Below, in pieces: positions 1,886-57,197 of a stretch of DNA of 64,000 nt (position 1 is the first letter of the stretch; every line of letters starts with the position of its first letter). The notes under the pieces are model-generated. The model had not been told where the DNA came from. It ran no database searches and worked only from the letters and a program-made list of their open reading frames with translations. The DNA is from an uncultured Candidatus Saccharibacteria bacterium (lineage in GTDB: Bacteria > Patescibacteriota > JABMPQ01 > JAQVVF01), in contig CAZNOH010000001.1 in assembly GCA_964574655.1 (NCBI GenBank), forward strand, positions 400,247 through 464,246. The letters run 5' to 3'. The position numbers and the translations under genes were made by a program.

Positions 1886-3769
1886 ATGAAGGATCAAAAC
1901 ACACAAACAAAAAAAGAGATAAATGTCGATGTTCTGTCGACCATAGATGAGTATTTAGGAAAAATGGATTGGCGAGTTTCAGCAAACGCAAATCAAGGCT
2001 ATTCTTTAGGCGGTATGATTTTAAATACTGCAGGAAAGGTAGTGGCTAATTATTGGTTGCATAAAATTTATCCAAAAGAAGTTGGTGAAGCTCATATCCA
2101 TGGTGATTATCATATCCATGATTTGGATATGTTCACTGGTTATTGCGCTGGATGGAGCATTAGGCAACTTTTGGAAGAAGGCTTTAATGGAGTTTCTGGC
2201 AAGGTTGAATCTGGGCCAGCAAAGCATCTAGAAACTGCTTTGGGACAAATGGTAAATTTTTTAGGAACATTGCAAAATGAGTGGGCTGGCGCGCAAGCTT
2301 TTTCATCTTTTGACACTTATTTGGCCCCCTTTGTTAAGATTGATAATTTGGATTATGAAAGAGTAAAGCAGTGTGTCCAGCAATTTGTTTTTAATCTTAA
2401 TGTTCCATCTCGTTGGGGAACACAAACTCCTTTTACGAATGTTACTTTAGATTGGGTTTGCCCAGAAGATATGAGAACAAGGAAGCCGGTAATTGGCGGC
2501 AAGGTCGTTGATTTTACTTATGGAGATTGCCAAAAAGAAATGGATATTGTTAATAAAGCTTTTATTGAGACAATGATTACAGGCGATAATAAGAGCAGAA
2601 TTTTTACTTTTCCAATTCCAACATACAATATTACAAAAGATTTTGATTGGGAAAATGAAAATGTGAAATTATTATTTGAAATGACAGCTAAATATGGTAC
2701 TCCTTATTTTCAGAATTTTTTAAATTCAAGCTTGAAGCCTTCTGATGTTAGAAGTATGTGCTGTAGATTACAATTAGACTTGCGTGAATTAAAAGCAAAA
2801 GGCGGAGGCTTGTTTGGCTCTGCAGAAATGACAGGCAGTGTTGGAGTAGTAACTATTAATTTGCCAAGAATTGGCTATTTAGCTAAAACAAAAGAGGAAT
2901 TTTTACAAAGATTAGAAAAATTAATGAGCTTGGCTAAAACTTCTCTAGAAATGAAAAGAAGAGTAATAGAGGAAAACATGGATAAGGGCTTGTTGCCTTA
3001 TACAAAACGCTATCTTGGATCATTGCATAATCATTTTTCGACAATTGGCGTTAATGGATCTAATGAAGCTTGTTTGAATTTTTTGGATAAAGATATTTCT
3101 CATCCAGAATCCAAGCAATTCATTCTTGATGTTTTGGATTTTATGAGAAAGAAATTAGCTGATTATCAAGAAGAGACAAATAATTTCTATAATTTGGAAG
3201 CAACTCCAGCAGAAGGTACAACATATAGATTTGCAAAAGAAGATCAAAAGAGATATCCAGATATTATTCAGGCAGGAACAAAAGAAGCCCCTTATTATAC
3301 AAATTCAACTCATTTGCCTGTCAGCTATACTGATAATCCAATGGAGGCATTAGACCATCAAGATGATTTACAAACTAGATACACCGGCGGAACAGTTTTG
3401 CATATGTTTTTAGGCGAAAGAATTATGAATTGGAAAGTTTGCCGAGATTTAGTTAAGAGAATCGCTGAGAATTATAGACTGCCTTATTTTACAATGACTC
3501 CCACGTTTAGTATTTGTCCAACGCATGGTTATTTGAATGGCGAGCAAAAGAATTGCCCAATTTGTGAGAAAGAATGTGAAGTATGGTCAAGAGTGATGGG
3601 ATATTTTAGGCCTGTCTCACAATGGAATAAGGGCAAACAAAGTGAATATGCTGAACGCAAAGAATATGAAATTAAGAATTTAAAATATGAAAATAGCCGG
3701 GTTTCAGAAATTAAGCCTATTAGAATACCCAGACAAGATTTGTGCAATAGTGTTTCTGCAGGGATGTAA
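1886..3769 (+). CDS. nrdD: Anaerobic ribonucleoside-triphosphate reductase (class III), NrdD
   Basis: 627 aa. C-terminal Zn-ribbon CPTHGY..CPIC and glycyl-radical motif RVMGYFRPV..WNKGKQSEY. The read-through tail overlaps nrdG. Confidence 0.9.
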   Translation: MKDQNTQTKKEINVDVLSTIDEYLGKMDWRVSANANQGYSLGGMILNTAGKVVANYWLHKIYPKEVGEAHIHGDYHIHDLDMFTGYCAGWSIRQLLEEGFNGVSGKVESGPAKHLETALGQMVNFLGTLQNEWAGAQAFSSFDTYLAPFVKIDNLDYERVKQCVQQFVFNLNVPSRWGTQTPFTNVTLDWVCPEDMRTRKPVIGGKVVDFTYGDCQKEMDIVNKAFIETMITGDNKSRIFTFPIPTYNITKDFDWENENVKLLFEMTAKYGTPYFQNFLNSSLKPSDVRSMCCRLQLDLRELKAKGGGLFGSAEMTGSVGVVTINLPRIGYLAKTKEEFLQRLEKLMSLAKTSLEMKRRVIEENMDKGLLPYTKRYLGSLHNHFSTIGVNGSNEACLNFLDKDISHPESKQFILDVLDFMRKKLADYQEETNNFYNLEATPAEGTTYRFAKEDQKRYPDIIQAGTKEAPYYTNSTHLPVSYTDNPMEALDHQDDLQTRYTGGTVLHMFLGERIMNWKVCRDLVKRIAENYRLPYFTMTPTFSICPTHGYLNGEQKNCPICEKECEVWSRVMGYFRPVSQWNKGKQSEYAERKEYEIKNLKYENSRVSEIKPIRIPRQDLCNSVSAGM

Positions 3770-4412
3770 TTTTAGATGTCCATTTTGCCATAATCCAGAA
3801 TTGGTCGGTGATCCTCCTTCGTCCTGCGGGACTTCGGAGGACGAGGTCTTCGGTTATTTGGTCAAGAAGAAGAAAATGCTAGATGGTGTTTGTATTACTG
3901 GCGGAGAGCCGACTATTTGGAAAGACTTGCCGGAATTTATTGTTGAGTTAAAAAAGCTTGGTTATTTTGTTAAGCTTGATACAAATGGATCTAATCCTGC
4001 GATGCTTGAAAAGCTTTATAAAAATAAATTGCTTGATTATGTTGCAATGGATTTGAAGGCTCCGTGGACGAGATATTCGGAAATTGGAATATTCGGAGCT
4101 TCGGAGCTTCGGAGCTTCGGAGCTTCGGAGCTTATGAAATTGGTTGAGAATTGTCGGAAGTCTTTTGAATTGATTCAAAATTCAGGAGTAGATCATGAAT
4201 TCAGGACAACTGTTTTTCCACAAAAGCATGTTGAAAATGATTTTATGGAAATGGCAAGTTATTTGAAATCTGGTGAAAAATATTATTTGCAGAATATTAG
4301 ATATATCAAGAATTTAGATCCTGCTTTAGATCAGAGCAAAAAGATTAATGTTAGCTTGGTTGTAAAAAATTTAAAGCAAAAATATCCTGATTTAATTGTT
4401 GAAGAAAGATGA
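3687..4412 (+). CDS. nrdG: Anaerobic RNR activating enzyme (radical SAM), NrdG, with in-frame repeat insertions
   Basis: N-terminal SLLEYPDKICAIVFLQGCNFRCPFCHNP (CxxxCxxC radical SAM). GGEP motif. Confidence 0.8.
   Translation: MKIAGFQKLSLLEYPDKICAIVFLQGCNFRCPFCHNPELVGDPPSSCGTSEDEVFGYLVKKKKMLDGVCITGGEPTIWKDLPEFIVELKKLGYFVKLDTNGSNPAMLEKLYKNKLLDYVAMDLKAPWTRYSEIGIFGASELRSFGASELMKLVENCRKSFELIQNSGVDHEFRTTVFPQKHVENDFMEMASYLKSGEKYYLQNIRYIKNLDPALDQSKKINVSLVVKNLKQKYPDLIVEER
3812..3848. repeat. GC-rich CTTCGG hairpin mini-element, copy A, in-frame inside nrdG
   Basis: atcctccttcgtcctgcgggacttcggaggacgagg. Stem TCCTCC/GGAGGA. It shares the loop and the motif with the copies at 6897 and 11058. Confidence 0.6.
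4092..4131. repeat. 8-bp tandem repeat (TTCGGAGC)x5 inside the nrdG coding sequence
   Basis: ttcggagc x5, translated in-frame as FGASELRSFGASEL. Confidence 0.85.
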
Positions 4413-7384: not shown

Positions 7385-7499
7385 TCGCTAATATTTTGCT
7401 AATGTTTGCGAATTATTTGCAAATAAAGTAAAAAGCCTGGTTGAATAGTAAATTTTATTAGCAAATAATTAGCAAATATTTGCAAATGATTAGCGAAAT
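7385..7499. promoter_or_regulatory. Two phased arrays (4+4) of the TTTGCTAAT/TTAGCAAAT/ATTTGCAAAT motif upstream of the Clp ATPase gene
   Basis: GC(T/A/G)AAT cores at 7388, 7398, 7408, 7419 and 7461, 7472, 7482, 7493 (10-11 bp period). ATTTGCAAAT itself is palindromic. Confidence 0.55.
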
Positions 7500-7514
7500 A
7501 ACAAATGTTTTTTT

Positions 7515-10660: not shown

Positions 10661-11025
10661 ATGGATAAACAAACTAAAAAAGAATTTACAACGCTCAAAA
10701 AAGGATTTACTACACTCAATAAAGAATTTACAGATCTGAAGAAAGTAATAAAAAATGGATTTAAGACGCAAGATGTTAAGTTTAATAATTTGCATGATAG
10801 AATTGATGATCTAGCTATGATGGTAAAAAAAAGTTTGATCAGAATAGTAAAGAGCATGAACAAAATAGAATAGAACATGAGCAAAATAGAAGAGAGCATG
10901 AAGAGATTTTAAACGAATTGGCAGAAGTTGATTTGAAATTAGGGGAAAAAGCAATGTGTGGTGATTATATTGATTTAGAGAGTCGTGTTGATGTTATCGA
11001 AAGAAAATTATTTCCGATTAGATAG
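10661..11025 (+). pseudogene. Small coiled-coil protein interrupted by a frameshift at an A8 homopolymer (10825-10832)
   Basis: Frame 1 MDKQ..MMVKK terminates at 10873. The +2 frame continues as KFDQNSKEHEQNRIEHEQNRREHEEILNELAEVDLKLGEKAMCGDYIDLESRVDVIERKLFPIR to about 11025. An A9 tract would fuse the two frames. Confidence 0.4.
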
Positions 11026-11095: not shown

Positions 11096-11830
11096 CTATT
11101 TTTTTGGAATTATTTGTTGTTTAGAGTTTAGTTTTAATTTCCAGACAATCCAAAAAGCTTCGTAAAATATTTTCTTTGAAAATTTAGAAATACCATTTTT
11201 GCGATCAGCAAAGACAATCGGTATTTCTTTTATTTTAAAGCCTGCTAACTTTGTTTTGAAAGCCATTTCAATTTGAAAAGAATAACCATCAGATTGAATT
11301 TGATCAAGATTGATTTTTTCTAAAACTTGACGTTTATAGCAACGGAATCCAGAAGTTAAATCATTAATTTCAAGCCTTAAGATTGTTTTGGCATATAATG
11401 TTCCAAAGCGACTGATTAATTTTCGATATAGCTCCCAATTTTTTGTTGATCCACCATCAATATACCGTGAGCCGATAACTAGATCTGAATCTTGCATTGC
11501 CTTCAAAAAAGAGGGGATACTGTGCGGATTGTGCGAGAAATCAGCATCCATTTCAAAGATATAATCAGCGCCTAAAAAGAGCGCTTTTTTAAATCCAGCA
11601 ATATAAGCAGAGCCTAGTCCCATTTTAGCTTCTCTGTCGATGACATAGAGTTGTTTTGGGAGGTTTTCACTCAATCTTTGGGCCATAATGCCTGTTCCAT
11701 CAGGCGAATTGTCGTCAACAATGATAATATTGCCATCAATATTGTTATCTCTAAAGACAGTTAAGATTTCTCGAACGATTTTTTTGAAGTTATCTACTTC
11801 GTTGAATGTAGGTAAAACGATACTGATCAT
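11096..11830 (-). CDS. GT2 glycosyltransferase, Dpm1/polyprenol-phosphate glycosyltransferase-like
   Basis: MISIVLPTFNEVDN...IIVDDNSPDGT and GT2 fold motifs. Confidence 0.75.
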   Translation of the reverse strand: MISIVLPTFNEVDNFKKIVREILTVFRDNNIDGNIIIVDDNSPDGTGIMAQRLSENLPKQLYVIDREAKMGLGSAYIAGFKKALFLGADYIFEMDADFSHNPHSIPSFLKAMQDSDLVIGSRYIDGGSTKNWELYRKLISRFGTLYAKTILRLEINDLTSGFRCYKRQVLEKINLDQIQSDGYSFQIEMAFKTKLAGFKIKEIPIVFADRKNGISKFSKKIFYEAFWIVWKLKLNSKQQIIPKK

Positions 11831-19423: not shown

Positions 19424-19534
19424 AACTACAGATTTTACACAGATTTTTTACAGATTATTACAAATAACACAGATGAGATATCTGTGTTATTTGTGTAGAA
19501 TTTGTATTTAATTTGTGTAAAATTTGTAGTTTTC

Positions 19535-23702: not shown

Positions 23703-24754
23703 TATTTTGTAAAGTAATTAATGACTTTCATTCTTCTGTTTTTACTTCTAAGATAATACGGGAGAATCCTATATAAAAGAGATATTATAGGTTTTATTCT
23801 ATAAAGGCTGATAAATTTTTCGCAGAATTTTTTTTGTTCTAAAAGTTTCTTAAATCTTTCGCTATGTTTATAATTTGGATTAATAATTTTTTTTGCAGCT
23901 TCCTGTCCTGATAGTAGCGCGTTGTAGATTCCTTCTCCTGTCAATCCATTTGTAAAACCGCCTGCTTCACCGACTAAAAAGAAATTATTAAATTGCATGC
24001 CTTTAAAATCATAGTTAATTGGAAATGATTCAATATCTTTTTCTGATATGTTGTATTTTTTTAACCATTGTAAAAAATTGTTTCTTAATTTTGGAATTGA
24101 AAAATATCTTTGGTCGGTTGCAGTGCCGAAACGAGTGTGATCTTTGTGTGGAAAGATCCAGGCATAGTGTGGTCCAAAAAGTTTGGTGTCAATTATGATT
24201 TCAAAGTCATTGAACAATTTGGTTGTTCGGACTTGCATTGTTATTGCTAGTTTGTCTGTTGAGATTTTTAGGGATTTTCGAACCAATGAATTTGCTCCAT
24301 CAGCGCCGATTAAATATTTAAATTGATAGCAATCTTTTATTGTATTGAGAGTATTTTTTTCTATAGAGGTGACTTGTGAGTCTGTAATTATGCTTGCACC
24401 AGCTTTTCTAGCTTTTTCTGCTAAGTATGTCCCAAGTTTTTCACGTTCGATCGTATATAAATAAGGTTCATCTTGGCTTAAGTTTATAACTTTATTGTAA
24501 ATAGTTATTTTTGCAGAATTAAAACTCTTGTCACAAATTGATATTGGAATGTTAAAGTAATTAATATCTTTTTGTGTTAATCCTCCAGCACAGACTTTTT
24601 TTCCAAATTCAGTATTTTTTTCTAAAACTAAAACTTTTCTATTCTGTTCGGCAAGTGTTTTAGCTGCTGATAATCCTGATGGCCCTGCACCAACAATGAT
24701 AGTTTCGAAATATTGCATTTGTTTTAAGTTTAGCATTTTTTTGTAATTCATCAA
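23702..24754 (-). CDS. FAD-dependent oxidoreductase, geranylgeranyl-reductase family
   Basis: IIVGAGPSGLSAA Rossmann motif. The true start is probably the internal MQYFET. Confidence 0.6.
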   Translation of the reverse strand: MMNYKKMLNLKQMQYFETIIVGAGPSGLSAAKTLAEQNRKVLVLEKNTEFGKKVCAGGLTQKDINYFNIPISICDKSFNSAKITIYNKVINLSQDEPYLYTIEREKLGTYLAEKARKAGASIITDSQVTSIEKNTLNTIKDCYQFKYLIGADGANSLVRKSLKISTDKLAITMQVRTTKLFNDFEIIIDTKLFGPHYAWIFPHKDHTRFGTATDQRYFSIPKLRNNFLQWLKKYNISEKDIESFPINYDFKGMQFNNFFLVGEAGGFTNGLTGEGIYNALLSGQEAAKKIINPNYKHSERFKKLLEQKKFCEKFISLYRIKPIISLLYRILPYYLRSKNRRMKVINYFTK

Positions 24755-27743: not shown

Positions 27744-28940
27744 ATGCTAAAAAAAATAATTTCATTATCGTTGGCGATATTTTTAGTCTTCTTTTTTGGC
27801 TATAAAGTTCTTGCAGCAAATTTGAATGATCAGTTGGATGTCAAGAAGGATAATATTCAACAAATTGATCAGAAAATTCAGGAATTGCAACAACAAATTG
27901 AGCAAAAACAAAATGAGCAAGTAACATTAAAAAATCAGATTACGATATTTGATACAGAAATAGAAAAAACAAAAGCGCAAATACAAAAGACTCAGGTTGA
28001 AACTGAGAGAACTAACTTAGAAATTGACAAACTAAAAATTGAAATTGATTTAAAGAAAAAAGAAATTGCCAATCAAAAAATTATATTAGGCGAGTATATT
28101 AGATTGATTTATGAGTATGATCAAGTAAGCGCAATTGAAATTTTGTTTGGTTATAATTCTTTTTCTGATTTTTTGGATCAAATGGAAAATGTGGAAACAT
28201 TGGAAAATAAAGGACAGCAGACATTAGATCAAGTTCAGAGAATTAAAATTGAAATGGATAGCAACAAGAAGGATTTAGATTCAAAGGCAAAAGATTTAGC
28301 TAATTTGGATGATCAGCTTAGCTTTGAGAAAGAAGAACTTAGTGGCAAGAAAATTGGCAAGGAAAATATTTTAGTACAAACAAAAGATAAAGAGGAAGAA
28401 TTTCAATCCTTATTAGTAAAGGCGAAAGAAGAACAAGATATTGCAAATAATGAAATCTATGCAATTGAACAGCAAATTAGAAGTCAGCAACAAGATGATC
28501 CTCAGCAAGATGATTGGCAAGATGTGGGTGGCGCAGAACTAGGTTGGCCGATAAATCCAGTGCAGGGAATTAGTGCTTATTTTATGGATCCTTCTTATTA
28601 TGCTTTTTGGGGACTTCAGCATTATGCGATTGATATTCCAGCTCCACAAGGAACTCCGATGCATGCACCAGCTGATGGATATGTCGCAAAATACAGTGAT
28701 GCTGGGCTAGGATATAGCTATATTCTTCTCTATCATGGCAATGGTCTTTCAACTGTTTTTGGTCATGCCTCAGCTTGTTATGTTGCTGAAGGATCAAATG
28801 TAAAGCGTGGTGATGTTATCGGTCTTTCTGGTGGTATGCCTGGCAGTCGTGGAGCTGGTTTTATGACTACTGGTCCACATTTACATTTTGAAGTTCGTAT
28901 TAATGGCAATCCAGTCGATCCAATGAAATACTTAAAATAG
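27744..28940 (+). CDS. M23 peptidase with an N-terminal coiled coil (EnvC-like)
   Basis: HYAIDI...D and HLHFEV metal motifs. Long Q/E/K coiled coil. Confidence 0.8.
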   Translation: MLKKIISLSLAIFLVFFFGYKVLAANLNDQLDVKKDNIQQIDQKIQELQQQIEQKQNEQVTLKNQITIFDTEIEKTKAQIQKTQVETERTNLEIDKLKIEIDLKKKEIANQKIILGEYIRLIYEYDQVSAIEILFGYNSFSDFLDQMENVETLENKGQQTLDQVQRIKIEMDSNKKDLDSKAKDLANLDDQLSFEKEELSGKKIGKENILVQTKDKEEEFQSLLVKAKEEQDIANNEIYAIEQQIRSQQQDDPQQDDWQDVGGAELGWPINPVQGISAYFMDPSYYAFWGLQHYAIDIPAPQGTPMHAPADGYVAKYSDAGLGYSYILLYHGNGLSTVFGHASACYVAEGSNVKRGDVIGLSGGMPGSRGAGFMTTGPHLHFEVRINGNPVDPMKYLK

Positions 28941-28942
28941 CA

Positions 28943-28985
28943 AGCGCTGATTTTACGCTGATTTCGAACGCTGATATACGCTGAT
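28943..28985 (+). repeat. ACGCTGAT x4 array, copy 1
   Basis: agcgctgatttt acgctgatttcga acgctgatat acgctgat. Located 3 nt after the M23 stop. Confidence 0.9.
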
Positions 28986-29030
28986 ATAAAATTTGTTAAA
29001 ATTTGACGATTCTAGCGTTTTATATATCTA

Positions 29031-29058
29031 ACCAGGTATCAATTCACCTGGTTTTTGT
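29031..29058 (+). terminator. Rho-independent terminator after the M23 peptidase gene
   Basis: ACCAGGT-atcaattc-ACCTGGT followed by TTTTTGTTG. Confidence 0.6.
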
Positions 29059-29631
29059 TGAGTTAGTTATAAGTTATCAGTTAAAAGTTATATATTTATA
29101 ATATTTATCAAAGACACTACTCTTTTCTTTTTTATTTTTTGAAGAAAGGCGAGATTGAACTTGGTTTAGGAACTTTGTAGAGAGTGAATCATTTATTTAT
29201 TTTTTAATTAATATAATAAATAAGTGAGAAGGCACGGAGGGATGGCACAGTGGTGGTTGGTTTGATTAATGATATATTAATTATTAAATAGGATATAATA
29301 ATTAATATAAAAAATAAAATAGGCTAAGGGGAGTCGTTCAGGATTGAATACGTCGCAAAAGATATATTGTGCGACGTGATGTCTCTTTGCGCTTTCTTTT
29401 GAACTGACTAACTTTTAACAAATTTTAATTAATCTTTTATATTATTTATTTAATTATTTTCATAAATAATTCGGAAATTCTTGGTGGCACTTCGTCTTCT
29501 GGTTGCCTGACTGTTGATTATTTTGTTAATTAATTATAAAAATAAATAATTAATTCGGGCTTCCCTGTTCTCTGTTGACTTTTTGGTCAAAAATGAAGCA
29601 AAGATTGGTTGAGTAGATTTATTAATGTATA

Positions 29632-29657
29632 AGAGCTATATAATGCTCTTTTTTTTG
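29632..29657 (+). terminator. Weak hairpin plus T8 (possible plus-strand terminator of an unannotated transcript)
   Basis: AGAGC-tatataat-GCTCT followed by tttttttt. Confidence 0.35.
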
Positions 29658-29659
29658 TT

Positions 29660-29689
29660 ATCAAAAAACGCTAGATTGTTTCTAGCGTT
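29660..29689 (-). terminator. Rho-independent terminator of the L,D-transpeptidase gene
   Basis: AACGCTAGA-ttgtt-TCTAGCGTT preceded by an A-run (a T-run on the minus strand). Confidence 0.55.
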
Positions 29690-29709
29690 CTAAAAGTTTT
29701 TATAATTCC

Positions 29710-31167
29710 CTATTCAACAACAACTGGCGTGTCAATTGGTGCCCAATTGTAAATCCATTCTGCATCTGGCGTGTACATATTAACGCAACCATGACTCATT
29801 TGATTGCCAAAATTGCTATGCCAGTATGTTCCATGAATTGTATATGGTCCATTAAAGGACAAGACAAATGGTACTCCAGGTAAATCATAGTTGTTAGGAT
29901 TACCAGGGCCATAGACATACGACATTCTGGTTGATCTGATTTTGCTGAAAACTTTGAAATCACCTGTTGGCGTTGGGAATGAATCAAGACCGGAAGAAAT
30001 AAGAAAAGAATCTAGCAATTCTCCATCTTCATACGCATATAAGGTTTGATTTGCTAAATTAACATGAATATATTTACCTTCTTTGTATTCTGGTTCCCAG
30101 GTTGGTTGTGGTGGATATTGATCAGTGTCTCTAGTTTTGAATGCATATTCTTTATCGCCTTCTAAAAAAGAAGCGTCTTGTGTACTTTTAATGCCACTAG
30201 CTATTTTAATTTTATATTCAGTGTTTTTAGCAAACTGATCTTCAGGAATAAAAGTCATAGTATTATCTTTCCATTCTATATTCCCTTTTGTTTCTGGAGC
30301 CAAAGTAAAATTGCTTTCTACTTGTTGATGATCAACTGGCTTGTTGAAAGCTAGAGATATCTTTCTTTTGACGTGGACATTTTGATCATTGTTTTCTGGC
30401 AATTCTTTTGTAATTTCAACAGGTGGTAATGTCGCAAAATGAAAAACTTGGGTGTCTATCGCCTTTTTATTTGGTGCATAGGTTTGTTTTACGGTAAAAG
30501 TGTAGTCAATTCCCTGTCCTAGCTGAGTAACTGGATCAATTATAAAAGCTGTTTGATTATTTTCTTCAATCTTATCTTTTACTTTTAACTCTGTTGTTGG
30601 CTCTAGTTTAAAATTAAAACTAAAATAATCACCAATTCCATCAACTGTAATTTTTAGTTCCGGTTTGATGTTAATATCTTTTTGATCATTTTTTGGATAA
30701 GTATCAACAATTTTAAAAGGTTTAACTGTGGAAAAAGCATAGGTGCGATTTTTAATTTTGGTACCAAAAACACTTTCTATGTCGCCTATTTCGATTGAGT
30801 AGTTTTTGTTTTCATCAAAGTATGTTTCTGGTGAGAAAACTAGTACTTTTGAATAGCCGAAAAGATAGTTTCTTTCCCAAGTAATTTTTCCTTTTGTTTG
30901 TGGATAAATGGAAAAAGAAGATTGAGCTTTTTTTTCGGAAATAGGAATATTGTATTTTATTCTTATTTTTTCATTCGGCTGGACTAGTTCCGTGCTATTA
31001 TTATTTCTTATTGTATAAACCTCATAAATTTGATAAAGATCTTGATAAGCTATAGCAAAAATAAAACCTAAGGCAATTAAAAAAAATAAAGTGAGAATGC
31101 AAAATGCGCTCTTATTAATTTTAAAATAAAAAAACTTTGATAATATACTTTTTTTGTTTGTTTTCAT
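29710..31167 (-). CDS. L,D-transpeptidase (YkuD domain) with N-terminal Ig-like repeats
   Basis: C-terminal TIHGTYWHSNFGNQMSHGCVNM catalytic His/Cys motif. TM anchor. Confidence 0.7.
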   Translation of the reverse strand: MKTNKKSILSKFFYFKINKSAFCILTLFFLIALGFIFAIAYQDLYQIYEVYTIRNNNSTELVQPNEKIRIKYNIPISEKKAQSSFSIYPQTKGKITWERNYLFGYSKVLVFSPETYFDENKNYSIEIGDIESVFGTKIKNRTYAFSTVKPFKIVDTYPKNDQKDINIKPELKITVDGIGDYFSFNFKLEPTTELKVKDKIEENNQTAFIIDPVTQLGQGIDYTFTVKQTYAPNKKAIDTQVFHFATLPPVEITKELPENNDQNVHVKRKISLAFNKPVDHQQVESNFTLAPETKGNIEWKDNTMTFIPEDQFAKNTEYKIKIASGIKSTQDASFLEGDKEYAFKTRDTDQYPPQPTWEPEYKEGKYIHVNLANQTLYAYEDGELLDSFLISSGLDSFPTPTGDFKVFSKIRSTRMSYVYGPGNPNNYDLPGVPFVLSFNGPYTIHGTYWHSNFGNQMSHGCVNMYTPDAEWIYNWAPIDTPVVVE

Positions 31168-31169
31168 GC

Positions 31170-31214
31170 AAGCGCTGATTATATGCTGATTTCCAACGCT
31201 GATTTGACGCTGAA
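31170..31214 (+). repeat. ACGCTGAT x4 array, copy 2
   Basis: aagcgctgattat atgctgatttcca acgctgatttg acgctgaa. It starts 3 nt from the ldt start codon. Confidence 0.85.
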
Positions 31215-31220
31215 AATTTG

Positions 31221-31592
31221 CTATTTATTTCGATTTTTATAATCTTGTATGGCTTTGTGTAAAGCATCGGCAGCTAAATTAGAGCAATGCTCTTTAATTG
31301 GTGGTAATTTTCCTAAAGCATCAGAAACGTCGCCTCTTGATATTTTTTCAGCTTGTTCTAGTGTTTTTCCTTTTGCTAGGTCTGTAATCATTGAAGAAGT
31401 TGCTATTGCTGCAGCACAACCTAAAGTTTGAAACTTTATATCTTCTATTTTATTATCTTTTACTTTTATGTAAAGCTTCATCATATCCCCACATAGAGGA
31501 TTTCCTACTTGACCCAGACCGTCTGGATTTTCTATCGCACCCATGTTGTGTGGATTTTTAAAATGATCTATTACTTTTTCTGTATATTGCAT
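31221..31592 (-). CDS. iscU: Fe-S cluster scaffold protein (IscU/NifU-like)
   Basis: GNPLCGDMM...LGCAAAIATSSM...HCSNLAA conserved Cys/His. Confidence 0.75.
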   Translation of the reverse strand: MQYTEKVIDHFKNPHNMGAIENPDGLGQVGNPLCGDMMKLYIKVKDNKIEDIKFQTLGCAAAIATSSMITDLAKGKTLEQAEKISRGDVSDALGKLPPIKEHCSNLAADALHKAIQDYKNRNK

Positions 31593-31636
31593 AATTTAAG
31601 TTCTTAAAGTTGTAAAGTTTTTAAAGTTATAAAGTC

Positions 31637-32803
31637 TTACTTGATTGGTGAAATCGTTCTTAATCTTGTAATGATCTTTTTCAATACTTCTACGGTTTTA
31701 TTTACGTCTTCCATCGTGTTTTCTTTACCAAAGCTAAAGCGAATACTGCCATGTGCTTGGAGATGGGATTTACCCAAAGCTAAAAGGACGTAAGATGGAC
31801 TTAAAGAGCCAGAAGCGCATGCTGATCCAGTTGAAACTTCAATGCCTTCAAAATCTAAGTTTAGCATTATACTTTCACCTTCGACTTTGTCGAAACTAAT
31901 ATTGGCATTATTTGGCAGGCGTTTGGTTTGGGAGCCATTTAGGTGCGAGCCTGTAATTTCTGTAAGTATCTTTTTTACTAATTTGTCTCTAAGAGACTGA
32001 ACTCTTTTGTTGTTCACTTCTCTATTCTTTTTTACAATTGATAATGCCTCGCCTATTCCTACAATGCCAGGAGTGTTTAAAGTTCCAGCTCTAAGATTAA
32101 ATTCTTGATGTCCGCCATGTTGAATTGGCTTTATCTTTGTTTTTTTTTTGATATATAGAATGCCCATTCCTTTTGGACCGCAGATTTTGTGTCCTGATAA
32201 GGATAATAAATCTGTTTTTAGTGCTTTTGTATTGCAATTTAGGTAGCCAGCTGCTTGCGTTGCATCAGTATGAAAGTAGATTTTGTTTTTTCTTTTCTTG
32301 TTAATTTTTTCAACTTGTTCGCCTATTTCTTTGATTGGTTGGATTGTGCCGATCTCATTATTTGCATACATAATTGAAATAAGAATTGTGTTTTCTTTGA
32401 TTGCTTTCTGAACAACATTTGTGTTCACTACTCCGTCATGAGTAACTGGCAATATCGTTACTTCTACCCCCCTACTCTTTAGATTTTTAACAACTTCTAA
32501 AATTGCTGGATGTTCAATATTTGTGGTTATAACGTGAGGCTTTTTAGTTTCTGTGGCGTCAATTATGCCTTTTAAGGCTAAATTGTTGCTTTCTGTTGCT
32601 CCTGATGTAAAGATAACCTCATTTGTTTCGCAATTCAAAAAATCAGCTACTTGCTGTCGCGCTTTATCTGTTCCTGCCAATGCTTCTTGGCCGGCAGTAT
32701 GAATTGAGCCTGAATTGCCAAAAATTTTATTAAAATATGGCTGCATAGCTTTTAGAACATCTGGATCTAAAGGCGTGGTTGCAGCATGGTCGAGATATAT
32801 CAT
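31637..32803 (-). CDS. iscS: Cysteine desulfurase (class V aminotransferase, IscS/NifS-like)
   Basis: PLP site SGHKICGPKG. IHTAGQEA motif. Active-site Cys loop SGSACASGS. Confidence 0.85.
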   Translation of the reverse strand: MIYLDHAATTPLDPDVLKAMQPYFNKIFGNSGSIHTAGQEALAGTDKARQQVADFLNCETNEVIFTSGATESNNLALKGIIDATETKKPHVITTNIEHPAILEVVKNLKSRGVEVTILPVTHDGVVNTNVVQKAIKENTILISIMYANNEIGTIQPIKEIGEQVEKINKKRKNKIYFHTDATQAAGYLNCNTKALKTDLLSLSGHKICGPKGMGILYIKKKTKIKPIQHGGHQEFNLRAGTLNTPGIVGIGEALSIVKKNREVNNKRVQSLRDKLVKKILTEITGSHLNGSQTKRLPNNANISFDKVEGESIMLNLDFEGIEVSTGSACASGSLSPSYVLLALGKSHLQAHGSIRFSFGKENTMEDVNKTVEVLKKIITRLRTISPIK

Positions 32804-32909
32804 AAAAAACTTGAAAAACTAAAAATATAATAAATTAACTAAAGATAATATAGCATAAACATGATTAGTTTGTAAAGTTCATAAAGTTTTAAAGTTATAA
32901 AGTAAATTT

Positions 32910-33921: not shown

Positions 33922-33950
33922 TTGACAATTTATTTTTTAAATGCTAATAT
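33922..33950 (+). promoter_or_regulatory. Sigma70-like promoter TTGACA-N17-TAATAT for rpmA
   Basis: ttgaca atttattttttaaatgc taatat. Confidence 0.55.
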
Positions 33951-33983: not shown

Positions 33984-34256
33984 ATGGCACATCGTAAAGC
34001 TGGCGGAAGTACCCAACTTGGGCGCGATTCTAAAGCGCAACGTCTTGGAGTTAAGAAATTTGCTGGTGAAAAAGTGAAGACTGGCAATATTATTGTACGT
34101 CAAAGAGGTACAGAATACTATCCTGGAAAAAATGTTAAGCAAGGTTGCGATGATACTATTTTTGCATTAAAAGAAGGAGTAGTTGAATTTAATTCTAAAA
34201 TGACAAAGAAATTTAACGGACGTTTAAAAAAGACTTGTTTTGTAAATGTCAAATAA
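33984..34256 (+). CDS. rpmA: 50S ribosomal protein L27
   Basis: [24 protein letters not shown]... Confidence 0.9.
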
Positions 34257-34258
34257 CA

Positions 34259-34302
34259 AGCGCTGATTTGACGCTGATTACTAACGCTGATCTAACGCTG
34301 AT
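34259..34302 (+). repeat. ACGCTGAT x4 array, copy 3
   Basis: agcgctgatttg acgctgattacta acgctgatcta acgctgat. It starts 3 nt after the rpmA stop. Confidence 0.9.
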
Positions 34303-34304
34303 AA

Positions 34305-34335
34305 TAAAAAATCGCTGATGAGGCGATTTTTTTGA
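34305..34335. terminator. Bidirectional rho-independent terminator between the convergent rpmA and pyrG
   Basis: AAAAAATCGC-tgatgag-GCGATTTTTTT. Confidence 0.7.
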
Positions 34336-34337
34336 GA

Positions 34338-35969
34338 TTATTTTTTGTTATCTATACAAGCTTTTATGAAGCTTTTGAATAGTGGATGTGGGTTTTCTAA
34401 CCTTGACTTAAATTCTGGATGAAATTGCGTACCAACAAACCATGGATGTTTATCTAGTTCAACAATTTCAGCAAGATCTAATTTTGGATTAATGCCAGTA
34501 ATTTTTAGACCATTTTTTTCTAATATTTCTTTGTATTTATTATTTATCTCATATCTATGACGATGGCGCTCTTGAATAATTTCTTTGCCATATGCTTTGA
34601 AGGCTTTTGTGTCTTTTTTAATTTTACATTCATATGCTCCTAATCTATTTGAAGCGCCATATTGTTTTTTAGCTAAAAGCTCTTTTTGTGCTTCCATAAC
34701 ATCAATGATGGGATTCCTTGTATTTGGGTCGTTCTCTGTTGTGTTAGCATCTTTTATTTTGCAGATGTTTCTGGCAAATTCTATGACTGCCATTTGTAAT
34801 CCGTAGCAAAGACCAAAATATGGTATTTTATTTTCGCGAGCGAATTTGACAGCATTTATTTTTCCTTCCACTCCCCTTTTTCCATAACCTCCAGGAACAA
34901 TGATACCATCATTGTTCTTTAATTCTTCAACTTTTTCAGGATTTTTTTCATAGGATTCTGCATCAAGCCAATTTATTATAGGGTTGACGTTGTTTGCCCA
35001 GCAGGCATGTTTTATTGCTTCTATCACAGAAATGTATGAATCTCCTTGCGAGAAATCTCCGGAAGTGAAATATTTACCGACAATTCCAATTTTTATTTCT
35101 TTTTTTACTTCCTTGATTGTTTTTACTAATTTTTTCCAATTGCTTAGACTTGCTTTTTTCTTTGGTTTAACGTCAAAGAATTTTAAAACGCATTCAGCTA
35201 CTTTTTGTTTTGCTAAAATTAGTGGAACTTCATAAATTGATTTGACATCTGGATTGGAAAAAATGTTTTCAATGGAAATATCTGTATTGCGTGAAAGAAC
35301 CTCCATACGATGTTTGTCCATGTATGTTGTAGAACGGCCGATGAATATATCTGGGACAATTCCAGCTGAAAATAGAGTTCTAACTGAGTATTGAGCTGGT
35401 TTTGATTTCATTTCTCCAATACTTGGAGGAATTGGAAGATATGCGATATGAATATTGAGGACATTTTTTTTAAGCTCATGTTTCATCATTCTATCTGCTT
35501 CTAAAAATAAAATTTGCTGATATTCGCCGACTGTACCGCCGAATTCAACAATTGCAAAGTCAGCTTTGTTTTTTTCGGCTGCTAATTTTATTCTTCTGAT
35601 TATTTCTTCTGGAACATGTGGTACAACCTCGACATCTTCGCCGTTATATTCTAGATTTCGTTCTCTTTTTATGACTTCTTGGTATATTTGGCCAGTTGTA
35701 AGAAAGCATTCTTTTCTTATGTCTTGATTAAGAAATCTTTCGTAAGTACCAAGATCTTGATCGCATTCCATTCCATCTTCAGTGACGTAAACTTCGCCGT
35801 GTTCGGTTGGTCTAATTGTTCCGGCATCAATATTAACATACATTTCGCACTTAATATTTACGACCTTAAAGCCTAAATCTTGCAGAAGCTTTCCAATTGA
35901 TGCAGATGTAATGCCTTTGCCCAAGGATGAAATAACACCTCCTGTTACGAAGATATATTTTGGTTGCAT
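34338..35969 (-). CDS. pyrG: CTP synthase
   Basis: 543 aa. N-terminal synthase domain VTGGVISSLGKGI. C-terminal glutamine amidotransferase GLCYGLQ. Confidence 0.9.
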   Translation of the reverse strand: MQPKYIFVTGGVISSLGKGITSASIGKLLQDLGFKVVNIKCEMYVNIDAGTIRPTEHGEVYVTEDGMECDQDLGTYERFLNQDIRKECFLTTGQIYQEVIKRERNLEYNGEDVEVVPHVPEEIIRRIKLAAEKNKADFAIVEFGGTVGEYQQILFLEADRMMKHELKKNVLNIHIAYLPIPPSIGEMKSKPAQYSVRTLFSAGIVPDIFIGRSTTYMDKHRMEVLSRNTDISIENIFSNPDVKSIYEVPLILAKQKVAECVLKFFDVKPKKKASLSNWKKLVKTIKEVKKEIKIGIVGKYFTSGDFSQGDSYISVIEAIKHACWANNVNPIINWLDAESYEKNPEKVEELKNNDGIIVPGGYGKRGVEGKINAVKFARENKIPYFGLCYGLQMAVIEFARNICKIKDANTTENDPNTRNPIIDVMEAQKELLAKKQYGASNRLGAYECKIKKDTKAFKAYGKEIIQERHRHRYEINNKYKEILEKNGLKITGINPKLDLAEIVELDKHPWFVGTQFHPEFKSRLENPHPLFKSFIKACIDNKK

Positions 35970-35979
35970 AAATTAAACT

Positions 35980-36023
35980 AGCGCTGATCTAACGCTGATT
36001 TTTAACGCTGATCTGACGCTGAT
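35980..36023 (+). repeat. ACGCTGAT x4 array, copy 4
   Basis: agcgctgatcta acgctgattttta acgctgatctg acgctgat. 10 nt upstream of the pyrG start codon. Confidence 0.9.
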
Positions 36024-36052: not shown

Positions 36053-36499
36053 TTATTTTTTGATGACAATGACTTTAATATCAGCTGAAATTTCAGGAGC
36101 AAATTTTAGTTTGACTTTGTACTCTCCTGTATTTTTAATTGCAGATGATAGAGCTACAACTTTTTCGTCAATATCTAGCTTCAATTGCTCTTTTATATTT
36201 TCGGAAATAACTTTTGCTGTTATTGAACCAAACAAAATTCCTTCTTCGTTTGCTTTAGAAGCAATTTTGATTTCTTTTTGATTTATTGTTTCAGCTAAAT
36301 CTTTTGCTTGCTTCAAAGCTTCTTCTTTTCTTTTCTTTATTTCAGTTTGCATTTGTTTTGCCAATTCAATCTCTTTTGTAGTTGCTAAGACAGCTAATTT
36401 TTTTGGCAAAAGAAAATTCTTACCAAAGCCCAAAGTTACTTCTTTGATTTCGCCTGTAAAACCTAATTTTTCGACATCCTTTTTTAAAACAACTTTCAT
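36053..36499 (-). CDS. rplI: 50S ribosomal protein L9
   Basis: MKVVLKKDVEKLGFTGEIKEV..GFGKNFLLP. Confidence 0.85.
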   Translation of the reverse strand: MKVVLKKDVEKLGFTGEIKEVTLGFGKNFLLPKKLAVLATTKEIELAKQMQTEIKKRKEEALKQAKDLAETINQKEIKIASKANEEGILFGSITAKVISENIKEQLKLDIDEKVVALSSAIKNTGEYKVKLKFAPEISADIKVIVIKK

Positions 36500-47197: not shown

Positions 47198-47255
47198 AAA
47201 ATGTACTTTGATCTATCAATTCGTTGATAGATTTTTTTTATCTTTTTTTATGAAA

Positions 47256-47953
47256 CCCCTCCCATGGGGAGGGTAGAAGATTTCTACCTTGGCCATGCCA
47301 AGGGTAGCGTGGTTTGAGGTAAGTTCTTTGTTTTTAATGATTTAAGTTGTTTAAGATCAAGTGTTCCTTCATTATCTTCGTCAATATTTATTACATTTCT
47401 AATTAACTCTCGCATTGCATTATCTCCATATTTTTTAGCATAATATCCGTAGCTTGAAAAAGGATTTTCTTTTAGATCTTCAAATCTGCTTACTTCTCTG
47501 TGTTTTAGTAAATTGCCGTTGATATATCCGATAATTTGCCAGTACATTTTTTCGTCTTTAATAAAAAATGTTTTTGTTGTTTGCCAGAAGTTTTTGCATT
47601 TGACTCGGTAAATTTTTTTATATTCTCTAGATATTCCGCTATGTAATATGTTCCTTAGTTGAGACATTGTTTTTCCTGATTTTAAGTAAAGCATAATATG
47701 GAAATGATTCATTGAGATACTGAATGATTGAAAAGGAACGTACAAGACTTCTTTGATTTGTTTGAATTTATTTAGAACAATTTGTTTCTGTTCAGATTCC
47801 TTAAAATACGGATAATGAAGGAAAGTTGAGGTTGTGAGGAAGAAAAAAGAGTTATCTGGCCAAATTATTTTTTGATTTGGCGGAAGTGGTTTTTGCATTG
47901 CTTTTTTGAACTTAACGACCCCTGCCATGGGTAGGGTAGAAGCTAAAGATCTT
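47256..47953 (-). mobile_element. RAYT/IS200-like (Y1 HUH) transposase gene flanked by REP-like GC-rich hairpins
   Basis: Left end: CCCCTCCCATGGGGAGGG, GGTAGAA-gat-TTCTACC and CCTTGG-ccatg-CCAAGG. Right end: CCCCTGCCATGGGTAGGG plus AAGATCTT. Both ends share the block CCATGGG(G/T)AGGGTAGAAG. Confidence 0.55.
47284..47928 (-). CDS. IS200/IS605-family Y1 transposase, REP-associated (RAYT-like)
   Basis: HuH motif NHFHIML. Catalytic-Tyr region GYINGNLLKH resembles IS200 YIHNNPVKAG. Confidence 0.5.
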   Translation of the reverse strand: MAGVVKFKKAMQKPLPPNQKIIWPDNSFFFLTTSTFLHYPYFKESEQKQIVLNKFKQIKEVLYVPFQSFSISMNHFHIMLYLKSGKTMSQLRNILHSGISREYKKIYRVKCKNFWQTTKTFFIKDEKMYWQIIGYINGNLLKHREVSRFEDLKENPFSSYGYYAKKYGDNAMRELIRNVINIDEDNEGTLDLKQLKSLKTKNLPQTTLPLAWPR

Positions 47954-48857
47954 TTTCTTTTTTAATAGGAACAAACAATTTTACAAAATCAACGAGTAAA
48001 GCTAACAGCAAGCTAATTGGATATAAAATCAAAATTATCAAAAAACTGAATATCGAATGAAATTTTTTGAAATAATGCAAAAGTGAATTATTCAAATAAA
48101 CTTGTTTTTTTATTCCTAAAACTTGATTAAAACTTTGAGCTTTGGCATGAATTGTTTGAGCATCTTTGAAATAGTAAATTTTGAAGTTAGCATTTTTTGC
48201 TTGTTTACAATAATCAACTTCTTCAAACCAGATCCAATATTTTTCATCTAGTAGGCCAATTTTGTTTATAACTTTGCGATTAATTAGAAAATACGCGCCC
48301 ATGACTTGATCAACGAATTGGCTTTTTTGGTAATCAAAATCAGTCATGTGATATTTTTTTAAAGTTGTTTGATTTGGGAAGAGATTGTGAAGTTTGAAAA
48401 GTATCAGAATTTGAGATGAAAGAGTCGGAAATGTTCGAATCGATGCTTGAACTGTTTTATCTGGATTTAAAAGTTGACAGCCTAAAATGCCAATGTCTTG
48501 ATGTTCTCGCATATAGTTAACTGTTCTTTGCAAGCAATTATGTTGGACTTCAGTATCTGGATTTAATAATAAGATATACTCGCCTTTCGCTCTTTTTATT
48601 CCTTGATTATTTGCTTTTGCGAATCCTAGATTTTGTTCATTAATAATGACGTGAGCATTTGTAACAGAATCAAAACGATCCAAATATTGATCTTTGGCAA
48701 GCTCATATTTTAGCATATCAGCCGAGCCATCTGATGATGCATTATCAATGACAATAACTTCATAATCAAAACTAGGCGCATTGGACATAATTGATTGAAT
48801 GCATTTGCGCAATAATTCTTTGGTGTTCCAGTTGACGATAATTATGGATAGTAACAT
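47943..48857 (-). CDS. GT2 glycosyltransferase
   Basis: LSIIIVNWNTKELL...VIVIDNASSDGS. Confidence 0.75.
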   Translation of the reverse strand: MLLSIIIVNWNTKELLRKCIQSIMSNAPSFDYEVIVIDNASSDGSADMLKYELAKDQYLDRFDSVTNAHVIINEQNLGFAKANNQGIKRAKGEYILLLNPDTEVQHNCLQRTVNYMREHQDIGILGCQLLNPDKTVQASIRTFPTLSSQILILFKLHNLFPNQTTLKKYHMTDFDYQKSQFVDQVMGAYFLINRKVINKIGLLDEKYWIWFEEVDYCKQAKNANFKIYYFKDAQTIHAKAQSFNQVLGIKKQVYLNNSLLHYFKKFHSIFSFLIILILYPISLLLALLVDFVKLFVPIKKEKDL

Positions 48858-52115: not shown

Positions 52116-52156
52116 ATCGCTAATCATTTGCTAATTTTTGCAAATTATTTGCTAAT
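52116..52156. promoter_or_regulatory. Phased array of four TTTGCTAAT/TTTGCAAAT motifs filling the NHL-GT1 intergenic region
   Basis: atcgctaat, tttgctaat, tttgcaaat, tttgctaat at about 10-bp period. Same family and same ATCGCTAAT leading unit as the array at 7385. Confidence 0.55.
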
Positions 52157-57092: not shown

Positions 57093-57197
57093 GAGCGGGT
57101 AGATAAGATGCTAAATGTTAAATTGTTCAATTGTTAAATTGTTAGGCGTTGAAAATCGTTTAACAATTGAGCATTTAGCAATTGAGCAATTAAAGCT

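Follow-up and report, generated by a model that had tools for sequence, protein, structure and literature searches.

In bacteria, several identical short motifs placed beside a gene can be read by an oligomeric protein, as with TRAP, which recognizes 11 spaced triplets, and CsrA, which recognizes several GGA sites overlapping the start region (motifs of 3-5 nt); for PhoP of Bacillus subtilis, four-repeat core sites are known. ArcA sites consist of two to five direct repeats at 11-bp spacing (PMC3798270). TAACTGA heptamer repeats occur in marine Beggiatoaceae, some Cyanobacteria and Bacteroidetes; their function is unknown, and a post-transcriptional regulator has been proposed (MacGregor 2015, PMC4679880). 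These heptamer repeats are the closest published counterpart of the element described here. We analyzed a 64,000-nt stretch (positions 400,247 to 464,246 of contig CAZNOH010000001.1, assembly GCA_964574655.1; hereafter the window) from an uncultured Candidatus Saccharibacteria bacterium, in which an array of four CGCTGAT heptamers lies between rplI and pyrG, the genes of ribosomal protein L9 and CTP synthase. This pyrG-side array is one copy of a dispersed, modular and transcribed repeat element of untranslated regions (UTRs), and it is not tied to pyrG.

The window contains six such arrays, all on the plus strand and all with one architecture, namely four (A)CGCTGAT units at a spacing of 11-13-11 nt:

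28943-28985, plus strand: array no. 1, starting 2-4 nt past the stop codon of an M23-peptidase gene, with an intrinsic terminator downstream (29030-29053)
31171-31214, plus strand: array no. 2, filling the spacer between a NifU gene (31221-31592, minus strand) and an L,D-transpeptidase gene (29710-31167, minus strand)
34259-34302, plus strand: array no. 3, starting 2-4 nt past the rpmA stop codon and followed by a terminator hairpin
35980-36023, plus strand: array no. 4, in the rplI-pyrG spacer, 10 nt 5' of the pyrG ATG and 29 nt 3' of the rplI stop codon
56086-56129, plus strand: array no. 5, 5' leader of the gene for a GT2 glycosyltransferase (ATG at 56148)
63009-63052, plus strand: array no. 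6, 5' leader of the gene for a PMT_2-like protein (ATG at 63071)

The consensus layout is (A)AGCGCTGAT-N3-ACGCTGAT-N5-ACGCTGAT-N2/3-ACGCTGA(T/A/G), and array no. 4 reads AGCGCTGAT-CTA-ACGCTGAT-TTTTA-ACGCTGAT-CTG-ACGCTGAT on the plus strand, that is, AUCAGCG(U) four times on the strand of pyrG and rplI. The module thus comprises two pairs of heptamers, with 11 nt within a pair, about 24 nt from pair to pair and spacers of 2-6 nt; array no. 2 carries two variant units (TGCTGAT as the second and CGCTGAA as the last). The exact 8-mer ACGCTGAT occurs 15 times in the window, always on the plus strand, compared with an expectation of 0.90 and with 100 shuffles, none of which gave as many; CGCTGAT occurs 25 times against 3.6 expected. 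Among the six copies, column identity is 96% in the units and 55% in the spacers, with a random expectation of 28%; judged from these alignments, the heptamers and their spacing are under selection and the spacers much less so. The arrays have a density of about one per 10 kb and are clustered, four lying within 7 kb and two within another 7 kb. The module adjoins at least ten unrelated genes of the window, and the Pfam assignments of the array neighbors include an M23 peptidase, an L,D-transpeptidase, L27, CTP synthase and glycosyltransferases.

Folding does not distinguish single arrays, whose own fold is no better than that of shuffled sequences beyond z of about -2. In the pyrG leader, two units form a weak 6-bp hairpin, and the whole leader reaches -15.4 kcal/mol (z = -2.2). 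In five window arrays, units 1 and 2 form a small minus-strand hairpin (AGCGU..AGCGCU with a T-rich tail). It was considered as a conserved attenuator and rejected: it relies on a clade-specific AAG preceding unit 1 and is absent from two syntenic relatives (L037 and L039, see below). Rfam gave no match to known RNA families at gathering thresholds over the whole window or at E <= 1 over 28900-29750, and ARAGORN found no tRNA or tmRNA.

The same module is present in other genomes. In what follows, numbers beginning with L denote comparison loci or contigs; L001 is a Patescibacteria metagenome-assembled genome (MAG), and the others come from metagenome contigs or syntenic relatives. A strict three-unit pattern (with leading G and A), which is too specific to the clade of the window, gave one match among GTDB species representatives, in the MAG L001. 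In metagenomes, the three-unit pattern matched 35 contigs, about 29 of which contain true arrays, in DNA of 28-51% GC. The four-unit 11-13-11 layout recurs across these roughly 29 independent contigs, with copy numbers of 3-6 (L008 has six units with alternating 11/13 spacing). In L003, L004, L007, L020, L025 and L030, an inverted partner array follows directly after the first, and such pairs, in which four units are followed by their reverse complement, fold strongly (z = -8 to -10); divergent array pairs occur in L031 and L035. No inverted CGCTGAT pair exists in the window, whereas they are common elsewhere, as in L004, L007, L020, L025 and L030. The genes flanking arrays elsewhere include rplR and rpsE, rpsB, rplT, nusB, greA, a penicillin-binding protein gene, pilB and pilC, as well as genes of GT2, CofD, Hsp20, DsbA-like, NUDIX and PD-(D/E)XK proteins. 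Because these neighbors are functionally so diverse, the CGCTGAT module can be regarded as general-purpose. A cell-envelope regulon of the WalR/PhoB-like kind, suggested by the neighbors in the window, is ruled out by the ribosomal, pilus, chaperone and redox neighbors found elsewhere. A search of 2.9 million viral contigs yielded no array and thus gives no sign of an origin from phage or plasmid iterons.

Six diverged contigs (L006, L009 at 11139-11180, L013, L014, L021 and L032) contain a full four-unit array inside the coding sequence (CDS) of ksgA, the rRNA adenine dimethylase gene, with ATCAGCG on the sense strand, encoding ..ISA(F/L)NQRRKSAFNQR... In this embedded array, 86% of the columns are invariant, third codon positions included, compared with 55-64% in the flanking CDS. 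A mobile insertion in frame is ruled out, as the protein is equal in length to E. coli KsgA. This invariance, together with the contrast between units and spacers, favors a sequence-specific reader and disfavors pure drift of a dead repeat.

The 1.3-kb contig L025 contains five arrays; two consecutive composite modules lie at 975-1245, built from CGCTGAT x4, ATCAGCG x4, a GC hairpin and ACAAAGGTCGAAAT, and the stop of one gene (CGC TGA) is part of the first unit.

CGCTGAT is not the only family of this kind. A search for 6-mers recurring at least three times at 7-14 nt spacing yielded 18 arrays in the window, compared with 0-4 in shuffled sequence. At least six further families of 3-5-unit arrays fill intergenic gaps, some as inverted pairs, and several of their motifs fit R-C-N-R-A-T:

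7387-7501, plus strand: inverted pair of the GCTAAT family, with GCTAAT x4 (spacing 11-10-11) starting 3 nt past a stop codon and ATTAGC x4 (from 7457) ending 14 nt before an ATG
52119-52156, plus strand: single array of the GCTAAT family filling an intercistronic spacer, read as AUUAGC x4 at 7 nt before the minus-strand ATG at 52111
31598-31639 and 32867-32903: TAAAGTT arrays
260-307: CTAGTTAGA array
19428-19527: ACAGAT/ACAAAT inverted pair
29060-29101: AGTTA array
57112-57191: AATTGT inverted pair
58305-58400: TACGAAT inverted pair

The GCTAAT family occurs in the window as GCTAAT, GCGAAT and GCAAAT, and its pair at 7387-7501 folds as one long hairpin. The AGTT-type arrays (at 260, 29065, 31598 and 32867) are co-oriented. 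The sense strand of the TAAAGTT family, AACUUUA, resembles the 'epsilon' enhancer of T7 gene 10, UUAACUUUA. The inverted pairs of these families form long hairpins (z = -4.5 to -12.6) that are 8-14 kcal/mol more stable on the transcribed plus strand, an advantage that is largely compositional, since the shuffled means differ by 5-8 kcal/mol and the z-scores are similar. For the same reason, the asymmetry between G:U and A:C pairs was dropped as proof of RNA structure and counts as weak evidence only.

The window is AT-rich (about 32% GC), with a positive GC skew over almost its full length. Around the pyrG-side array, it contains the following features:

34338-35969, minus strand: pyrG (CTP synthase; Pfam CTP_synth_N, 6.9e-95, and GATase)
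33984-34256, plus strand: rpmA (ribosomal protein L27), stop codon at 34254-34256, convergent with pyrG
36053-36499, minus strand: rplI (ribosomal protein L9), 5' of pyrG on the same strand
34306-34334, both strands: bidirectional intrinsic terminator common to the convergent rpmA and pyrG, composed of an A-run, AATCGC-TGATGAG-GCGATT and a T-run

The pyrG start at 35969 is secure because the protein begins with MQPKYIFVTGG. A canonical promoter (TTGACA-17-TAATAT, 33922-33950) precedes rpmA, and no terminator was predicted between rplI and pyrG. The description given by the initial annotation holds at this locus: pyrG is flanked by the two arrays at 35980-36023 and 34259-34302, the former 10 nt upstream of its ATG with AUCAGCG(U) x4 on its own strand, the latter between the rpmA stop codon and the bidirectional terminator, whose hairpin folds on both strands (minus-strand fold -9.3 kcal/mol, z = -5.0; 3 nt from the pyrG stop codon). 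The CGCTGAT word within the hairpin is a coincidence and not a fifth copy of the repeat fused to the terminator: in relatives the stem AATCGC..GCGATT persists, with one C-G/T-A change that is compensatory, and the loops are different. A Shine-Dalgarno (SD) sequence is indeed absent at pyrG, as had been stated; this is not a trait of pyrG, for only three of the 54 open reading frames (ORFs) in the window (33428, 46850 and 58441) show an SD-like sequence no more than 20 nt from the start, and the genome is essentially SD-free. No leader peptide or small ORF runs through the pyrG-side array, the open frame upstream of pyrG having no start codon. Many spacers in the window are extremely short, e.g., the 14 nt separating the divergent starts at 24754 and 24769.

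Comparison with close relatives shows how readily the arrays change. PyrG homologs with 91%, 91% and 85% identity led to the syntenic contigs L037, L039-41 and L038. In the rplI-pyrG spacer, both L037 and L038 carry an array of the GCTAAT family where the window has the CGCTGAT array, and L039 has none, showing instead a terminator-like hairpin and a TATAAT promoter. Between rpmA and pyrG, an array is present in L037 (its first unit overlapping the end of rpmA) and L038, and L039 has the terminator alone. The array between the NifU and transpeptidase genes is kept in L039, and the L037 copy is interrupted between units 2 and 3 by the hairpin CCTGCCTGCCGTAGGCAGG. A GC-rich hairpin of the same type splits the rplI-pyrG GCTAAT array of L038 at the same relative position. 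These inserts (L037 5209-5227; L038 9053-9086) begin with CCTGCCTGCC, end with GGCAGG and lie exactly between units 2 and 3; such a hairpin was found nowhere else in the L037 and L038 contigs or in the window, and it may be a small element that targets array centers or an optional part of the module.

Further relatives (L043, L044 and L045) were found by way of a GT4 gene (87% and 85% identity). A promoter-like region 5' of the GT2 gene is conserved and is followed by the CGCTGAT array in the window and L045, or by a CGAAT/TTCGAA-type array in L043 and L044. A promoter element is also conserved at array no. 6:

62992-63000, plus strand: extended -10 element TGTTATAAT, conserved in relatives, 5' of array no. 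6

Array no. 6 starts about 8 nt downstream of this element and is present only in the window, being absent from L043 and L044; the conserved extended -10 therefore places the predicted transcription start near the first unit of the array. At the neighboring ORF 62033-63004 (minus strand), the called TTG start at 63004 is probably wrong, and comparison with L043 points to an ATG at 62986 (MENQKV...). L043 contains no CGCTGAT array in 13 kb, versus six in the 64-kb window, and in L045 an array fills a 59-nt convergent spacer without a terminator. The TACGAAT hairpin is absent from L043 and L044, and L045 has an unrelated hairpin in its place. The orthologous spacers are as follows: the TACGAAT-array hairpin in the window (58307-58441), a 28-bp perfect inverted repeat with a GC-rich core in L045 (3717-3843), and nothing in the 27 nt of L043 (5509-5536). 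Small structured inserts just past stop codons turn over rapidly, and close relatives gain and lose arrays, or replace them with another family, at one and the same site.

The arrays occupy three kinds of sites: the start of 5' leaders, the space between cistrons just 5' of a start codon, and the position directly past stop codons, ahead of terminators. Read in the CGCTGAT direction, the first unit lies 3-6 nt past a co-oriented stop codon or 5-16 nt before a start codon on the opposite strand. Arrays of AUCAGCG sense directly precede start codons (the pyrG and transpeptidase leaders, L003, L020, L026, L030 and L004), and those of CGCUGAU sense mostly abut stop codons, often before an intrinsic terminator (arrays no. 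1 and no. 3, L001, L008, L011, L012 and L019); the stop-to-terminator position itself is taken by the L001, L008 and L012 arrays as well as by nos. 1 and 3 of the window. A 2x2 table of orientation against the nearer codon gave a Fisher p of 0.02; it includes some orthologous cases and relies on heuristic ORF calls where contigs are short. Exceptions to this rule are arrays no. 5 and no. 6, L005, L025, L031 and L035. The rule could reflect a function in the transcript, or descent from palindromic elements (four units followed by their reverse complement) that lost one arm. Arrays no. 5 and no. 6 lie just 3' of promoter elements, the same elements being conserved in relatives without that array, and the L003 array is located inside a ribosomal operon, between rplR and rpsE.

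We favor, with a probability of roughly 40%, the reading that the array is a module recognized by a protein, with the RNA level slightly ahead of DNA. The array would be a multivalent landing pad for a sequence-specific oligomeric factor, in the simplest case a dimer of dimers with one subunit per heptamer, as suggested by the two-pair geometry, and related factors would recognize the sister families (GCTAAT, TACGAAT, ACAGAT, TAAAGTT and others). Recognition in the transcript is preferred, in which case the bound factor would tune the translation start or the mRNA fate of the adjacent gene. This preference comes from where the arrays lie (past a -10 element and before the ATG, between cistrons of a ribosomal operon, and past a stop codon but ahead of a terminator), from the orientation rule, and from the hairpin tolerated between the two pairs: its independent occurrence between units 2 and 3 of a CGCTGAT array (L037) and a GCTAAT array (L038) implies proximity that is kept in a single strand and not in duplex DNA. 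Binding to double-stranded DNA as an operator or roadblock would be nearly as likely. The region from +1 to +45 is a classical operator position, and a reader of duplex DNA copes with both orientations. At pyrG, control would be of the same generic type as at other array-bearing genes rather than CTP sensing. The array may be bound by an RNA-binding protein, as the initial annotation suggested.

Several observations weigh against a protein-read module. The loss or swap of arrays among relatives whose flanking proteins are 85-91% identical means that any function they have can be dispensed with at an individual gene. With respect to transcription, the two orientations occur about equally often, so that an RNA reader would need two specificities or only half of the arrays would work. 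Among the neighbor genes scanned, no DNA- or RNA-binding gene is recurrently linked to the arrays. Moreover, with five or six repeat families as a minimum, a genome of about 0.65 Mb would need several readers, and the placement of all six window arrays on a single strand is left unexplained.

Base pairing between arrays would dispense with a protein. Here, CGCUGAU x4 in 3' UTRs and leaders would pair in cis or in trans with AUCAGCG x4 before start codons, hiding or exposing start regions, coupling neighboring cistrons or making RNase III substrates, with the families serving as orthogonal codes. The predicted pairing between window transcripts with opposite arrays is strong (-36 to -56 kcal/mol, compared with -3 to -7 for shuffled sequences and -1 to -13 across families), the AUCAGCG-sense arrays lie 5-16 nt before start codons, and a CGCUGAU-sense array with its terminator resembles 3'-UTR-derived small RNAs. 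The symmetric spacing (11-13-11, 11-10-11) is what antiparallel alignment of all units needs, inverted pairs are frequent (the six listed above, z = -8 to -10), and a code of this type suits a genome with few regulators. However, networks of this kind have little precedent, CGCTGAT hairpins lack complementarity between their spacers, and the position rule is broken by the six exceptions given above. The better folding of the other families' inverted pairs on the transcribed strand also fits a pairing code, but it is largely compositional, and the conservation of one heptamer across genomes of 28-51% GC fits a conserved protein more easily. We therefore regard a complementary-array code as unlikely, though not negligible. 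A bolder reading, doubtful and rated as a long shot, is that reduced Patescibacteria genomes use several orthogonal families of spaced heptamers as a base-pairing code of their UTRs, in which an array past a stop codon would be the complement of arrays ahead of the start codons of other genes or of the following cistron. The arrays of the rpmA 3' UTR and of the pyrG leader would then be partners (-49 kcal/mol in the pairing model), and sets of mRNAs would regulate one another or couple their translation via multivalent 4 x 8-bp duplexes, in place of protein regulators or SD pairing.

Another explanation takes the arrays as selfish or near-neutral repeats of the REP/REPIN or MITE type, i.e., ends or half-elements of a small non-autonomous element that would spread locally in intergenic gaps and do nothing sequence-specific for the genes beside them. 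Presence or absence and family swaps at identical sites in close relatives, a lineage-specific abundance, the existence of both singlets and inverted doublets, and the clustering and co-orientation of the window copies are consistent with it, as are the partial resemblance of spacers to one another and the unrelated hairpin elements that also come and go at the same spacers. The window even contains a RAYT-like HUH transposase gene (47284-47928), but this gene is flanked by another repeat (CTTCTACCCT..) and not by CGCTGAT arrays. Furthermore, the units are far better conserved in situ than the spacers, synonymous sites are constrained in the ksgA-embedded copy, and the array is not palindromic, unlike REPs; target-site duplications are not evident, and none of the viral contigs contains an array. 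A selfish or near-neutral origin is also unlikely in our view, though not negligible.

The RAYT-like ORF (minus strand) has the HUH motif HFHIML and matches NCBIfam REP_Tyr_transpos over nearly the full model (E = 1.4e-11, 44.5 bits, with a cutoff of 80), with a weak match to Pfam Y1_Tnp. Its flanks (47240-47290 and 47929-47960) carry CTTCTACCCT(A/C)CCC-type repeats and the GC-rich hairpins CCCCTCCCATGGGGAGGG and GGTAGAAGATTTCTACC. To judge from these matches, the ORF may be a RAYT-like domesticated transposase in a genome of the Candidate Phyla Radiation (CPR).

A chromosome-polar DNA motif, similar to Chi, KOPS or primase sites, would tie the orientation of the arrays to the direction of replication, and their intergenic clustering would reflect the cost of a GC-rich 8-mer within AT-rich genes. 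Regardless of gene strand, the 15 exact 8-mers and the six arrays occupy the plus (G-rich) strand without exception, in a window that has an almost uniformly positive GC skew and includes neither origin nor terminus, at about one array per 10 kb, and the AGTT-type arrays are co-oriented as well. On the other hand, inverted and divergent pairs are common in other genomes, L026 and L003 show the opposite relation to skew and gene strand, a fixed four-unit architecture and multiple families would not be expected, and local copying could also yield co-orientation. Such a motif is improbable.

The weakest explanation, proposed in the initial annotation, is a pyrG-specific leader device akin to the CTP-sensing reiterative-transcription attenuator of Firmicutes, which has the position of the array 10 nt upstream of the ATG in its favor and is nearly excluded by the presence of the same module beside unrelated genes, its lack of conservation at pyrG (relatives carry a GCTAAT-family array or none), the lack of a G-run in the 90 nt upstream of the pyrG ATG (minus strand), the lack of a leader terminator with just 10 nt from array to ATG, and the genome-wide nature of the missing SD sequence. 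The B. subtilis pyrG attenuator depends on initiation at GGGC and on a terminator in the leader, the 5' arm of which pairs with added poly-G; both are absent at the array locus, and only pyrG itself is shared. For annotation, these arrays should not be taken as gene-specific leaders, and their presence at pyrG says nothing about pyrimidine control.

Three further regions of the window deserve mention. Between arrays no. 1 and no. 2, 28986-29709 comprises 720 nt without an ORF of at least 90 aa, with GC-rich patches amid very AT-rich runs, a promoter-like sequence at 29074-29102 (TTATCA-17-TATAAT) and, at 29631-29650, a hairpin resembling a terminator; L037 has other genes there, and the region may be an RNA of unknown type or a decayed gene. 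At 4092-4133, TTCGGAGC is repeated perfectly five times with period 8 within ORF 3687-4412, just past its radical-SAM domain, and the end of this ORF is perhaps miscalled because a period of 8 is odd for coding sequence. Two sets of repeats of about 21 nt (three copies each) at 10669-10902 occupy a region without a long ORF and resemble a small repetitive CDS of the coiled-coil type.

Patescibacteria (CPR) have very small genomes, few recognizable regulators and, in this lineage, almost no SD sequences, and the control of their gene expression is largely obscure. The arrays, as selected, modular and quickly exchanged repeats within few non-coding bases, offer a concrete handle on it. If a reader were found, whether a protein or complementary arrays, it would reveal a general control layer in a major and mostly uncultivated branch of the bacteria.

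Among known systems, TIGR-Tas, which also occurs in Parcubacteria, has 36-nt units with two 8-9-nt guide spacers in long regular arrays, a tas gene with a Nop domain and 36-nt RNAs (PMC12045711). It resembles the present arrays in its alternation of short conserved and variable segments, in CUGA/UGAU-like (box C/D-like) letters and in its occurrence in parasitic bacteria. Identity with a TIGR array is ruled out by size, as the CGCTGAT arrays have four units of 11-13 nt with spacers of 2-6 nt and are dispersed; no tas-like gene flanks the six window arrays, whose neighbors have other Pfam domains, or was seen among the genes scanned. TRAP and CsrA targets, which are read by oligomers, share with the arrays a leader position beside the start codon and several short identical motifs set apart by spacers that are short and variable. 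They differ in acting in one orientation, at specific operons or sponge RNAs, and no homologous binder was identified among the scanned proteins.

The operators of the OmpR/PhoB family (pho boxes) come close in geometry: a 7-nt core and a 4-nt A/T-rich spacer give an 11-bp period, the repeats occur in pairs, and four repeats hold two dimers. These operators, however, lie upstream of or over the promoters of a defined regulon, whereas the arrays are located 3' of the -10 element, between cistrons or past stop codons of unrelated genes; the array pairs are 24 bp apart instead of 22, and the sister families have 8-9-nt periods. No response regulator with a Trans_reg_C domain was present among about 70 proteins scanned.

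REP/BIME and REPIN-RAYT elements (PMC3116915, PMC3337134) are likewise dispersed, extragenic and transcribed, lie between cistrons or between stop and terminator, and occur as singlets and inverted doublets, the latter seen for CGCTGAT in genomes other than that of the window. Family- and lineage-specific abundance, presence/absence polymorphism among relatives and the RAYT-like gene in the window add to the likeness. A REP, however, is an imperfect palindrome of about 20-40 nt, whereas the CGCTGAT array is a direct repeat without its own fold, its conservation is concentrated in the heptamers instead of being spread across the element, and the RAYT-like gene of the window is not flanked by such arrays. 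Effects of REPs close to stop codons were reportedly described by Liang, Rudd and Deutscher in 2015.

The TAACTGA repeats share the most features with the arrays. They are direct repeats of a short heptamer in 2-6 copies at many intergenic sites, with occasional copies in ORFs, and lie mostly a few nt from the starts of unrelated genes, including ribosomal protein genes, in genomes with few canonical ribosome-binding sites; the cyanobacterial STRR heptamer repeats form a broader class of analogs. Both TAACTGA and STRR repeats are contiguous, with a period of 7, and the TAACTGA repeats belong to one family, whereas the CGCTGAT arrays have a period of 10-13 and variable spacers. Unlike the TAACTGA repeats, they are accompanied by several orthogonal families with frequent inverted pairs, are as numerous past stop codons as before start codons, and belong to a patescibacterial lineage. 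The searchable literature on repeats in Patescibacteria and Parcubacteria gave no description of them. The arrays therefore appear to be an undescribed variant, in Patescibacteria, of dispersed intergenic short-repeat elements.

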